DNA of 58,933 nt from NCBI GenBank assembly GCA_035363255.1, contig DAOSES010000015.1, forward strand, positions 1 through 58,933. Direction: 5' to 3'. A program made the position numbers and the translations under genes. This document shows, piece after piece, positions 3,773 to 12,399 of the stretch. How positions within the stretch are numbered: the stretch's first letter is position 1; each line of letters begins with the position of its first letter. This DNA comes from Caldisericia bacterium (lineage in GTDB: Bacteria > Caldisericota > Caldisericia > UBA6126). The notes below the pieces were generated by a model, which saw only the letters and a list, made by a program, of their open reading frames with translations, was not told where the DNA came from and did no database searches.

Positions 3773-3862
3773 TGGCGGAGAAGGGGGGATTCGAACCCCC
3801 GAAACACGTACGTGTTTATCTGCTTTCGAGGCAGACGCTTTCAACCACTCAGCCACCTCTCC
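3773..3862 (-). tRNA. tRNA-Ser (anticodon CGA), type II with long variable arm, CCA encoded
   Basis: The reverse complement reads GGAGAGGTGGCTGAGTGGTTGAAAGCG-TCTGC-CTCGAAA-GCAGA-(long variable arm)-GGGGGTTCGAATCCCCC-CTTCTCC-G-CCA. The acceptor stem has 7 bp with one G-U pair, and the anticodon loop is CU-CGA-AA. Confidence 0.85.
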
Positions 3863-4310: not shown

Positions 4311-5059
4311 GATTTCATTGGGGTAATTAGACCATTTTTAGCAAAGCTATAATAATCCGACTCATTAGCGCCAATAATGATATGATCAAGAACTGATACA
4401 TGAACGAGTTGACATGCTTTAACAATGGTGTGAGTGGTATGCATATCATCCTTTGATGGCGTGGTTTCACCGCTTGGATGGTTATGCACAAGAATTATTG
4501 CAGAAGCTGACAACTTGGTGGCATGCATTATCACTTCGCGGGGATCAACCATACAGGTATCAATCGTACCCATGGTCAAGTGAACTGTTTTGATCGGCTT
4601 GTTTTTTACATTAAGCAGAATTAGAGAAAATATCTCTTTTTTAATGTCACGATGATAAATTCCAATTTCATCTGCAACATAGTGAACAACTTCTTCTGGA
4701 CTTTGAAGTTTAGGTAGTGTATTTGCTCTTTCCTGAATGAGTCGTTTTCCGAGTTCCAAAGAAGCCTTAACTTGGATTGCTTTGGCATTTCCTATGCCTT
4801 CAATGGTGCATAATTCTTCTATGCTGGCTTGATCTAAACCACGTAAGGTTTTAAAGTGATTCATTAGCTTTTTTGCTACATCTTCAGCGCTTGTTCCGTA
4901 GGTACCCGTTCGTAGGATAATAGCCAAAAGTTTCGAAGGCGAAAGGTTTTCAGCTCCCATTTTTTGAAGCATCTCTCTGGGGCGTTCGTCCTCGATCCAG
5001 TACTTGATCGCAAGATGTTTTTCCGGTGTTATATCCTTTTTTTTCATTGCTACTCCCAT
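4307..5059 (-). CDS. radC: RadC-like JAB/MPN domain protein (UPF0758)
   Basis: JAMM motif HNHPSGETTPSKDD with an N-terminal HhH region. Its start overlaps the rsgA stop. Confidence 0.85.
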   Translation of the reverse strand: MGVAMKKKDITPEKHLAIKYWIEDERPREMLQKMGAENLSPSKLLAIILRTGTYGTSAEDVAKKLMNHFKTLRGLDQASIEELCTIEGIGNAKAIQVKASLELGKRLIQERANTLPKLQSPEEVVHYVADEIGIYHRDIKKEIFSLILLNVKNKPIKTVHLTMGTIDTCMVDPREVIMHATKLSASAIILVHNHPSGETTPSKDDMHTTHTIVKACQLVHVSVLDHIIIGANESDYYSFAKNGLITPMKS

Positions 5060-5739
5060 GTTGCAATTTTCTCATTTCTCAGTTTTTGATAGCTAGCAAA
5101 GCGCTTTGGATGAATTTGACCCAGTCGTAAAGCTTCTTTCACTGCACAGTTTGGCTCATTAGCGTGGGTGCAATTTGAAAACTTACAAAAAGGAATTTTC
5201 TCAATAATCTCCGGAAAAAAAGACTCAACGGAATCCAAGCGAATAAATCCTAATTCTTTTATTCCTGGAACATCAGCTATGAAAGTTTTTTCGTTTAACT
5301 CGTATAACTTTGATCCTGAGGTAGTATGTCGACCTGATTTTCCTATGATATTGAGTTGATTGATTTTTAAATCCAATCCAGTTAAGGCTTTTATTAAAGA
5401 GCTTTTTCCAACACCAGAGAGTCCGAGAAAAATGGTCTTTCGACCTTCGAGGATAGTTTTCAATGATTCCAATCCATCTGAAGTCTTTGCACTGACGTAA
5501 ACTACTGAAACTCCTAAGCTAGTATAGATTTGTTGTATTTCAGGATGCAAATCTTCTTCTTCGTCGCTCTTATTGATAATCAAGAAGGGTGTTACTTTGC
5601 CTGAAAGACATGCAATCAACATTCGATCAATCATTCCAATAGGAGTTATTGGGTAGTTTTTGGCAATAACTAAAAAAGCTTGATCCAAATTGCATGCAAT
5701 TACTTGGTTTTGCCTGGATTTGTGAGTAGACTGCCTCAT
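5050..5739 (-). CDS. rsgA: Ribosome small-subunit biogenesis GTPase RsgA. This is the annotated ATG-initiated part; the conserved OB-fold coding region continues upstream to 5970 without a canonical start.
   Basis: P-loop GLSGVGKSSLIKALTG and C-terminal zinc finger CKFSNCTHANEPNC. The in-frame translation of 5740-5970 matches the RsgA N-terminal OB fold. Confidence 0.85.
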   Translation of the reverse strand: MRQSTHKSRQNQVIACNLDQAFLVIAKNYPITPIGMIDRMLIACLSGKVTPFLIINKSDEEEDLHPEIQQIYTSLGVSVVYVSAKTSDGLESLKTILEGRKTIFLGLSGVGKSSLIKALTGLDLKINQLNIIGKSGRHTTSGSKLYELNEKTFIADVPGIKELGFIRLDSVESFFPEIIEKIPFCKFSNCTHANEPNCAVKEALRLGQIHPKRFASYQKLRNEKIATWE

Positions 5740-5970
5740 GAGGATAGTGCGGGGTGGAAGAATACGATGAATTACTGCTAAACCATCATTTAAAGAAAAT
5801 TCAACTTCATCGCCAAGAGCAAGGGAGTTTGATTTATCAGCATGAGCTGATGTGTGGCTTTTTTTTAACCAAGCCTTATAGACACTACCTTGTGCGTCTC
5901 GAAGCGATATGAATCCCGATATCTCAACTATCTGACCCCGAAAAAAAGAATTGCTGATAAATCTATCCCT

Positions 5971-7785
5971 CTAAGATGGATAGTCTGGCAAAAAGGCAAT
6001 AGATATGGTGCCAGGTCCGGAATGAGAGCCAATTGTAGGGGAAATAGAGGTAACATAAATGCTTTTTACGGGATACATTTTTTCAATTTGTTCTTTATAC
6101 CAAAGAGCAGTAGATTCGTTATTACAATGACCTATTGCAAAATGTACTGATTTTAGCCCTGATATTCGCTTTGAGATCTCGTGAAGCATTTTTTTTCTGA
6201 GGCCATTGCTTCCAAAAGCTTTGGAAAAAGGTTTTAAAGCTCCTGTAGGATCGGTATGCATTAAGGGTTTTAGATTGAGCAAAGTAGCAATTTTACCTTT
6301 TGAAGCTTTGAGTCTTCCGCCACGAATAAGATACTTTAAATCTTCAACTGTAAACAATTGTTGGATGTGGTTGCATGACCACTCAACTCTATCGCAAACT
6401 TCTTTAAAACTAAGTTGTTCCTCGATGGCTTTACCTGCTTGGGCTACAATTAAACCAAGACCTACACATATACTTTTGCTATCATAAGCAAGAATGTTTT
6501 CAGAGATACTAGCTGCTATTTTTTTGGCACTGTCGATTGAAGCACTTAATGGCCTTGCTATATGGATAGCTAAAGTGTTTTTAAAATTACGATTAGTCCA
6601 TTCATAGGTCTGTTTTAAGTCCATGTTGCTGAGTTGGGAGGTTTTTGCAACATCAGTTGAGTTTTGCATTCGGGTATAAAACTCATGATCGTCAATGGTA
6701 ATGCGATCAATCAGATTTTCTTTTCCAAAAGTAATACGAAATGGAATACGATGTATGTTGTATTTTTCTATCAAGTCGAGGGGTATGTCACAGGAGGTAT
6801 CAGTCACTAGTGCAATATTATGATTTACTTCTCCGTAGATATCTTTTTCCTGCTGACGAATATCTTCAATCTTCTCCTGATCTGTTTGACCATACTTTTG
6901 CAGAATTTGAAAAATTTTACCGGGCTGGTCTGAATGAGCATGGATTTTCATTTTTGTTTTTGAACCAACCACTACAACTGAGTCTGCAAAGGGTTTAAGT
7001 TCATCTTGAATAGTTTTACTGGACAAATGGTCGCCAACTAAAATGCACTCGGTGCAATAGCGATAGATTGAATCGGATTCTGGTGTATTGTTCGGTAAGG
7101 TTTTTTTATTTTCATCGGATATCTTTTTCCATAATTCACGGCGCATACGGCCATGTTCCATGTAGTCAACAATACCCTCAATCATATACACAAATCCTTG
7201 TGCACCTGCGTCAACTACATTTGCTTTACGAAGCACTTCCATCTGTTGAGTTGTACGAGCTAGACTAGCCTTAGCGGTTTCGAGTGATTGATACATTAGC
7301 GATGAAAAATCAGCTTCATTTTTACATCGTTCTGAAAGATCCTGTGCCCATTCTCGAATAACAGTCAGTATAGTACCTTCTTTAGGATTTGAAACTGCTT
7401 CTACTGCTCTTTTAGAAGCCAAGCTTGACGCTTCAGCCAAGTCTTTAGTATTAATTTTTCTGAATTTTTCAAAGCCTTCAGCTAGACCTTGGAAAAATTG
7501 AGCTAATATGGCGCCTGAATTTCCTCTGGCATTCATAAGGATGCTGTCGGCTATTAATTTGCTGGATTCTGAAATTGAGGAAGAATTGACGCTTTCAGGA
7601 TCCAATGCAATCGAACGTAGGGTTCCGCCCATGTTAGTACCCGTATCACTATCAGGAACAGGAAAGACATTAATATCATCGAGTTGTTTTTCTCTTTCAA
7701 TCAGCCATTTACTCGCTGCAACAATAGCACGATTAAACCTATTGCCATCTAAAAACTGAATACGATAATCATTTTTTTCTACCAT
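5971..7785 (-). CDS. yloV: DAK2 domain fusion protein YloV (DAK2 + DegV-like domain)
   Basis: N-terminal DAK2-like sequence (PVPDSDTGTNMGGTL) and C-terminal DegV-like sequence (IALVTDTSCDIPLDLIEKYNI...). Confidence 0.85.
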   Translation of the reverse strand: MVEKNDYRIQFLDGNRFNRAIVAASKWLIEREKQLDDINVFPVPDSDTGTNMGGTLRSIALDPESVNSSSISESSKLIADSILMNARGNSGAILAQFFQGLAEGFEKFRKINTKDLAEASSLASKRAVEAVSNPKEGTILTVIREWAQDLSERCKNEADFSSLMYQSLETAKASLARTTQQMEVLRKANVVDAGAQGFVYMIEGIVDYMEHGRMRRELWKKISDENKKTLPNNTPESDSIYRYCTECILVGDHLSSKTIQDELKPFADSVVVVGSKTKMKIHAHSDQPGKIFQILQKYGQTDQEKIEDIRQQEKDIYGEVNHNIALVTDTSCDIPLDLIEKYNIHRIPFRITFGKENLIDRITIDDHEFYTRMQNSTDVAKTSQLSNMDLKQTYEWTNRNFKNTLAIHIARPLSASIDSAKKIAASISENILAYDSKSICVGLGLIVAQAGKAIEEQLSFKEVCDRVEWSCNHIQQLFTVEDLKYLIRGGRLKASKGKIATLLNLKPLMHTDPTGALKPFSKAFGSNGLRKKMLHEISKRISGLKSVHFAIGHCNNESTALWYKEQIEKMYPVKSIYVTSISPTIGSHSGPGTISIAFLPDYPS

Positions 7786-12325: not shown

Positions 12326-12399
<74 letters not shown>

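Follow-up and report, generated by a model that had tools for sequence, protein, structure and literature searches.

Where does translation of rsgA begin in a genome in which the part of the gene encoding the N-terminal OB-fold domain contains no canonical start codon? The question arises on contig DAOSES010000015.1 of a Caldisericia bacterium (GenBank assembly GCA_035363255.1), analysed here from position 1 to 58,933 (hereafter the window, 58,933 nucleotides [nt]). On its minus strand, rsgA, encoding the ribosome-biogenesis GTPase RsgA, follows a fakA/degV gene, and the rsgA frame runs open behind the TAG at 5973-5971 for 77 sense codons (5970 to 5740) that include no ATG, GTG or TTG. The translation of this stretch begins RDRFISNSFFRGQIVEISGF and ends ...ILPPRTIL, and the earliest canonical start in the frame is ATG 5739-5737, which gives an open reading frame (ORF) of 229 amino acids (aa) ending at TAG 5052-5050. 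Among the 64 long stop-to-stop ORFs of the window, rsgA alone had a start-less 5′ end of more than 31 codons. At the local base composition the probability of 77 stop-free codons is ~0.005, and that of 77 coding codons lacking ATG, GTG and TTG is ~0.02. A first-pass annotation, made from the sequence alone, had recognized the RsgA OB domain in the stretch and had offered non-canonical initiation, readthrough of the TAG or a sequence error as explanations; every coordinate it gave (TAG 5971-5973, ATC 5958-5956, ATG 5739, stretch 5970-5740) agreed with the sequence. We found that the sequence is real, that it has no canonical start, that the OB stretch is translated, and that a Shine-Dalgarno (SD) motif followed after nine nucleotides by an AUH codon (AUA, AUC or AUU) is kept in a clade of three species. 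Judged from the compared sequences, rsgA is likely an intact gene of 302 codons initiated at AUC 5958-5956 with the SD motif GAGG, probably coupled to termination of the upstream gene.

The encoded protein belongs to the RsgA/YjeQ family, having an OB fold, a circularly permuted GTPase domain and a zinc finger, and scoring 176.7 bits (5.6e-52) against TIGR00157, whose equivalog cut-off is 100. In the 306-residue translation that runs from behind the TAG, the TIGR00157 match began at residue 53, PDB RsgA chains aligned from residues 48-52, and Pfam RsgA_GTPase matched (3.7e-41) from residue 72, six residues before the ATG. GTPase motifs stood in the permuted order G4-G1-G3 in invariant columns (N129-K130-x-D132, G179-x-S-G-V-G-K185-S and D229-x-P-G232), and the zinc site C-x4-C-x-H-x5-C (C258, C263, H265 and C271) was invariant in 38 sequences. 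Because Pfam RsgA_N gave no match above threshold on the OB domain of the window protein or its clade, identification of the OB fold rests on clade alignment and structure prediction. Relatives at 60-77% identity were conserved across the whole region in the alignment (AWLKKSH, DKSNSLALGDEVEF and LAVIHRILPP). The predicted N-terminus for a start at ATC is (M)SNSFFRGQIVEISGF..., and an AlphaFold2 model of this 302-aa protein, built from a 38-sequence alignment, had a mean predicted local distance difference test (pLDDT) score of 84.4, block scores of 73-94 in the OB region, and OB-domain strands assigned by DSSP at E6-14, E16-21, E26-36, E51-57 and E60-66. Foldseek aligned ~300 columns of the model to the RsgA/YjeQ structures 7boi_W, 2rcn, 6h4d and 1u0l, with query TM-scores of 0.72-0.79 for these top four. 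Clade alignment, selection (below) and AlphaFold2/Foldseek thus bear out the earlier assignment of the stretch to the OB domain. Three-domain architecture and motifs are like those of canonical RsgA/YjeQ/YloQ (E. coli, T. maritima 1u0l, B. subtilis 1t9h), and the length of 302 aa, with no long N-terminal extension, is like that of T. maritima/A. aeolicus-type RsgA; unlike canonical RsgA, the window gene has a proposed AUC start and the OB domain of its clade falls below the Pfam RsgA_N threshold. In RsgA the OB domain is the anchor on h44 of the 30S subunit, inserting between h18 and h44 (PMC5499641), and a product without it is therefore unlikely to be the functional form.

Comparison of orthologous yloV-rsgA junctions, which the first-pass annotation had proposed as a check, showed that two sister species are also start-less and carry GAGG-N9-ATA. 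The gene order PmbA/TldD-fakA/degV-rsgA-radC-tadA was kept in all relatives. An ATG start was present in species P0001 (L011-13; junction TAA-CTAAGTG-ATG) and in P0006 (L019/L023; TAA-CCT-ATG), where rsgA is in frame with the upstream gene and has its own ATG, while in P0005 (L018) and P0007 (L020/21/24) the ATG overlaps the upstream stop. Species P0003 (L014) and P0004 (L015-17, three independent assemblies) had no canonical start before the OB domain, and their gene-caller product is a 257-aa protein from an internal TTG. Common to the three start-less species was a GAGG followed after exactly 9 nt by an AUH codon, ATC in the window and ATA in L014 and L015-17 (Table 1), which sits seven codons before the conserved GQIV of strand β1; the ATC is positionally homologous to these ATA codons and to an ATT in L011. 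The upstream gene of L014 and L015-17 is out of frame with rsgA (13-nt spacer), and an in-frame TAA (within GAGGTAA) leaves two codons, AGA-GTT/GCC, before the ATA; initiation must therefore fall between that stop and β1, where ATA is the sole near-cognate codon. No GAGG was found at the junctions of the ATG-bearing L011, L018, L019 and L020, and its presence in the AUH species only is consistent with a strong SD that compensates for a weak start codon. The upstream stop lies 12-13 nt from the start in AUH species, and at most 7 nt from it or overlapping in ATG species.

A FakA-DegV tree placed the species as (((window, L014), L015), L011), with L018 and L019 outside; since the three start-less species group together, loss of the ATG is most simply a single event in their ancestor. 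The window junction appears to be derived by loss of one A (TAAGAGG to TAGAGG), a change that would have kept both the stop and the SD spacing and brought the two genes incidentally into one frame. We evaluated the start codon at 104 fetched RsgA-homologue loci, for which the distant loci from a metagenome scan served as the control set: a canonical start upstream of the OB domain was missing in 14, all from the three species, and in none of the other 90. That metagenome scan for more clade members yielded distant RsgA homologues and one already-known locus, and no new junctions. A genome scan added two loci only, L023 of P0006 and L024, whose junction is identical to those of the P0007 loci, and both have ATG starts.

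In the OB region the proportion of non-synonymous differences (pN) was ~0.18 and that of synonymous differences (pS) 0.56-0.75, against 0.14-0.19 and 0.64-0.76 in the remainder of rsgA; pS was similarly saturated in neighbouring genes. Purifying selection on the OB region thus equals that on the rest of the gene, and the stretch is therefore translated. Between the start-less sisters L014 and L015, synonymous differences in the OB region numbered 11 and non-synonymous ones 4. The window's GQIVEISG codons, which precede 5910, differed from L014, and also from L011, at 3 synonymous and 0 non-synonymous sites. These two sisters also share a tract (L014:1980-2385 and L015:2808-3213) of 90-97% nucleotide identity over the junction and the first ~350 nt of rsgA, compared with ~80% elsewhere, and within rsgA their pS rose from 0.22 in the OB region to 0.69 in the remainder. 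The tract could be a recombination tract or could mark nucleotide-level constraint on the initiation region.

That a sequencing or assembly error conceals a normal start codon or a frameshift has virtually no probability, although homopolymers (T7 and A8) lie in the region of the putative error and one assembly (L001) does contain an indel, albeit ~70 nt upstream of the TAG and within the upstream gene. Ten loci from different samples and pipelines were fetched (NCBI GCA_964576405.1, two JGI metagenomes and seven Logan assemblies), and all ten had a junction identical to that of the window, T7 and A8 runs included. These assemblies represent several haplotypes, differing by a few single-nucleotide polymorphisms outside the junction; the lone variant within the start-less stretch was a synonymous GAA-to-GAG. 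Since the junction is identical in ten independent assemblies, sequencing error, the last of the three explanations offered in the first-pass annotation, is excluded, and an error would also have to account for the start-less situation in two other species, one of them with three independent assemblies. The L001 indel (GCA_964576405.1), near 6042 and ~303 nt before the equivalent of ATG 5739, turns C4 into C5 at the 3′ end of fakA/degV and gives a frameshifted fakA/degV product of 607 aa; all other assemblies agree with the window, and the variant is probably an assembly error.

With the sequence secure, initiation at AUC could proceed as follows. A ribosome would be recruited by GAGG(GA) 9 nt upstream of the near-cognate AUC, which would be decoded by the initiator tRNA as formylmethionine (fMet). 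As the SD overlaps the TAG of the co-transcribed fakA/degV, ribosomes terminating 12 nt upstream may feed initiation by translational coupling. A likely consequence would be low-level rsgA expression sensitive to initiation factor 3 (IF3), which would suit a sub-stoichiometric, catalytic assembly factor. We infer the use of AUC itself, its decoding as fMet and a role for coupling. Of 53 crude start calls in the window, at least 15 had a GGAG or GAGG motif ahead of them, compared with 6.8% of random 17-nt windows, and two other window genes had the 9-nt SD spacing. A promoter/terminator scan found no promoter-like site between fakA/degV and rsgA, and a single one immediately upstream of fakA-degV (7851-7823, minus strand). 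The only RNA genes that an Rfam scan of the window returned are tRNA-Ser(CGA) at 3773-3862 and tRNA-Arg(ACG) at 12326-12399 (both minus), neither a suppressor nor an initiator tRNA; near rsgA the scan showed no leader or riboswitch.

Several observations weigh against this reading. A 9-nt SD spacing is at the long end of the range in this genome, and an out-of-frame ATT (5962-5960), found in the window species only, might compete from its more typical spacing of 5 nt. As leader codons 2-7 vary, selection does not place the exact start within codons 1 to ~8, and it is SD spacing and positional homology that point to ATC; the NCBI pipeline picked a different non-canonical codon, ATA 5910. RsgA of the window lineage also evolves faster than its neighbours (pN against L014, L015 and L011 of 0.15-0.19 in rsgA, 0.04-0.10 in fakA/degV and 0.07-0.09 in radC; protein difference between the window and L014 of 23% for RsgA and 7% for FakA-DegV), which could reflect relaxed constraint. 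The ATT opens a 12-codon ORF through the T7 run (ATT TAT CAG CAA TTC TTT TTT TCG GGG TCA GAT AGT TGA) and might act as a decoy, specific to the window species, that reduces initiation at rsgA.

Table 1. Coordinates of features at the fakA/degV-rsgA locus of the window, and the aligned junctions of the three start-less species and L011.
Feature	Position	Strand	Basis or remark
Upstream gene, 604 aa, Dak2 + FakA-like_M + DegV	5971..7785	minus	ORF list and Pfam; TAG 5973-5971 is its end
GAGGGA, Shine-Dalgarno-like	5966..5971	minus	GAGG core 5971-5968 overlaps last base of the TAG; 9 nt before ATC
Proposed rsgA initiation codon, ATC (AUC)	5956..5958	minus	No other AUN codon lies between the TAG and strand β1
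Proposed full-length rsgA coding sequence, 302 aa plus TAG 5052-5050	5050..5958	minus	TIGR00157, AlphaFold2 model, Foldseek
Five-stranded OB-fold domain, residues 6-66 of 302	5761..5943	minus	Wholly 5′ of the first canonical start
T7 run in codons 4-6 of the variable leader	5941..5947	minus	Invariant in all assemblies
ATA at which the NCBI product (286 aa, MSLRDAQ...) starts; probably encodes an Ile within strand β2	5908..5910	minus	HOI25115.1
First canonical ATG, Met74 of the 302-aa protein; internal residue, not start	5737..5739	minus	Start of the 229-aa ORF in most pipelines
Junction, window			...cTTAGAGGgatagatttATC AGC AAT TCT TTT TTT CGG GGT CAG
Junction, L014			...aTAAGAGGtaaagagttATA GAC ACC TGT GTT CTT AAA GGT CAG
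Junction, L015			...aTAAGAGGtaaagagccATA GAT ACC AGC GTT CTT AAA GGT CAG
Junction, L011			...aTAActaagtgATGaacATT GAA ACA GAG ATT CAA AAA GGA CAG

The start chosen in the NCBI annotation of the window contig (HOI25115.1, ATA 5910-5908) represents the possibility that translation begins at a downstream in-frame AUH codon, either this one, giving 286 aa, or ATA 5931 or 5922, with an OB domain clipped at its N-terminus. The Ile codons in question are AUH in the sister species as well, but this conservation is explained by the protein, since ATG-bearing relatives also have Ile there, and no SD lies at a workable distance from them, the GAGG being 36-57 nt away. A start at 5910 would moreover remove strand β1 of the predicted OB barrel and leave outside the gene the GQIVEISG codons, which differ from relatives only synonymously; we consider a downstream AUH start quite unlikely. 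It is even less probable that the OB region is untranslated, whether rsgA yields a functional 229-aa protein from ATG 5739 or is a decaying gene after loss of its start, although most gene callers report this ORF (P0002, 32 contigs) and the faster evolution of RsgA in the window lineage would fit decay. The 73 codons from ATC to ATG are open, part of a stop-free run not readily expected by chance, and the purifying selection on them equals that on the rest of the gene among three species saturated at synonymous sites. The ATG itself lies inside the Pfam RsgA_GTPase match with no SD before it in the sequence, and the position of Met74 is occupied by Leu in P0001, L015, P0005 and P0007 and by Ile in P0006; the protein would also forgo its 30S anchor (PMC5499641).

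Readthrough of TAG 5973-5971, producing a FakA/DegV-RsgA fusion that supplies the OB domain, was suggested in the first-pass annotation by the two ORFs sharing one frame with the TAG alone between them. L019 and L023 are likewise in frame, though with their own ATG. The suggestion does not survive comparison with L014 and L015-17, which share the start problem yet have the two genes in different frames and a second stop, TAA, closing the rsgA frame. Nor was a fusion-length RsgA homologue seen among the 120 best matches, or significant RNA structure at the stop (the fold of 5900-6020 had z = +0.82 relative to shuffles); the two window tRNAs are not suppressors, and binding would probably not tolerate 600 aa appended to the N-terminus of the OB domain, to judge from the OB position on the subunit (PMC5499641). 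TAG is an ordinary stop here, terminating 9 of 54 ORFs in the window, rsgA included, and reassignment of TAG was rejected on the same count. Readthrough is accordingly highly improbable, and we give no more credence to a start at the out-of-frame ATT with a later +1 slip on T7 (5947-5941) that would bring ribosomes into the rsgA frame. Such a path would profit from an ATT 5 nt after GAGG, a more typical SD spacing, and from TTT-TTT-T, which permits tRNA-Phe to re-pair at +1 before a possibly slow TCG codon. It would, however, require two rare events where one suffices, with no stimulatory SD or structure beside the slip site, and the sisters have neither the ATT nor the T run (GTT CTT AAA there) yet face the same start problem with GAGG-N9-ATA. 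The T7 run is restricted to the window species, whereas programmed frameshifting is recognized by a conserved slippery site. Initiation at ATC 5958-5956, the remaining explanation of the first-pass annotation, is the one favoured by GAGG-N9-AUH in three species.

Initiation at AUC has precedents. In E. coli, AUA, AUC and AUU initiate at ~1-2% of the AUG level and yield proteins that begin with Met (bioRxiv 10.1101/063800); Deinococcus dnaA has an ATC start verified by proteomics, and infC starts at ATT or ATA (PMC2830850). The AUU/AUA starts of infC (encoding IF3) and pcnB, at which initiation is low and IF3-sensitive (PMC2830850; bioRxiv 10.1101/063800), likewise belong to conserved housekeeping translation or RNA genes, keep AUH across related species and are preceded by an SD. 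For rsgA, the three species similarly combine absence of a canonical start, an SD at functional distance and an AUH at a homologous position. Unlike infC and pcnB, the gene here is rsgA and the spread is far narrower, covering three species of one Caldisericia clade whose relatives use ATG. Deinococcus dnaA has the same codon, ATC, together with conserved N-terminal residues upstream of canonical starts and inconsistent annotations, a problem that was also solved by orthologue alignment; its N-terminal peptide was seen by mass spectrometry (PMC2830850), whereas we infer the rsgA start from comparison. Streptomyces sigR, whose GTC start is repressed by IF3 (PMC5472188), offers a parallel for a non-canonical start as a translational control point, but differs in codon class and gene, and its regulation was shown experimentally. 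No earlier report of a non-canonical rsgA start was found in the literature searched.

IF3 discriminates against AUH codons, and its availability depends on the pool of 30S subunits. By analogy with infC, the AUH start might make RsgA synthesis rise when IF3 is limiting relative to (immature) 30S subunits, a proposal for rsgA that we regard as rather unlikely; if true, production of a 30S maturation factor would be coupled to demand. The unusually high nucleotide conservation of the junction and the 5′ end of rsgA between L014 and L015 could reflect such a regulatory constraint of the AUH start. A direct feedback, in which loss of RsgA raises non-canonical initiation, was also considered and is countered by data from E. 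coli, where ΔrsgA, unlike ΔrbfA and ΔksgA, brought no rise in initiation at CUG, AUA or AGG (PMC6868393).

The comparative evidence corrects the gene model for three species, with window rsgA most likely encoding 302 aa from AUC. Public versions are all too short, at 229 aa (from ATG), 257 aa (from TTG, in the sister species) and 286 aa (NCBI, from ATA 5910), and so lack the OB domain, the 30S anchor of RsgA, partly or entirely. A ribosome-biogenesis GTPase would thereby join the few bacterial genes whose AUH starts are conserved. The clade also provides a natural experiment, ATG without SD in some species and AUH with a GAGG SD in others, which looks like compensatory evolution of initiation signals. 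The AUC start of rsgA is most likely an uncommon but known kind of start, neat rather than surprising to a specialist.

Genes flanking rsgA showed further peculiarities. The upstream gene had been named yloV in the first-pass annotation, which located its in-frame TAG correctly; the name is only approximate, as Pfam matched Dak2 (7.6e-38), FakA-like_M (1.3e-19) and DegV (1.7e-65), and NCBI lists it as HOI25116.1, 'DegV family protein'. Its Dak2 and FakA middle domains are joined to a full-length, high-scoring DegV (FakB-like) domain, and by these matches it resembles a fusion of the fatty-acid kinase A/B type more than a standard YloV/FakA. In P0007, fakA/degV was called as two overlapping ORFs (L020:1186-3008 and L021:416-2238) of 299 aa (Dak2/FakA_M) and 322 aa (DegV), either because of a frameshift or because the fusion is truly split there. 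Downstream, the rsgA stop TAG overlaps the start region of radC (5047-5059, minus), for which assemblies variably call ATG 5059 (250 aa, with a 10-nt overlap) or ATG 5047 (246 aa).

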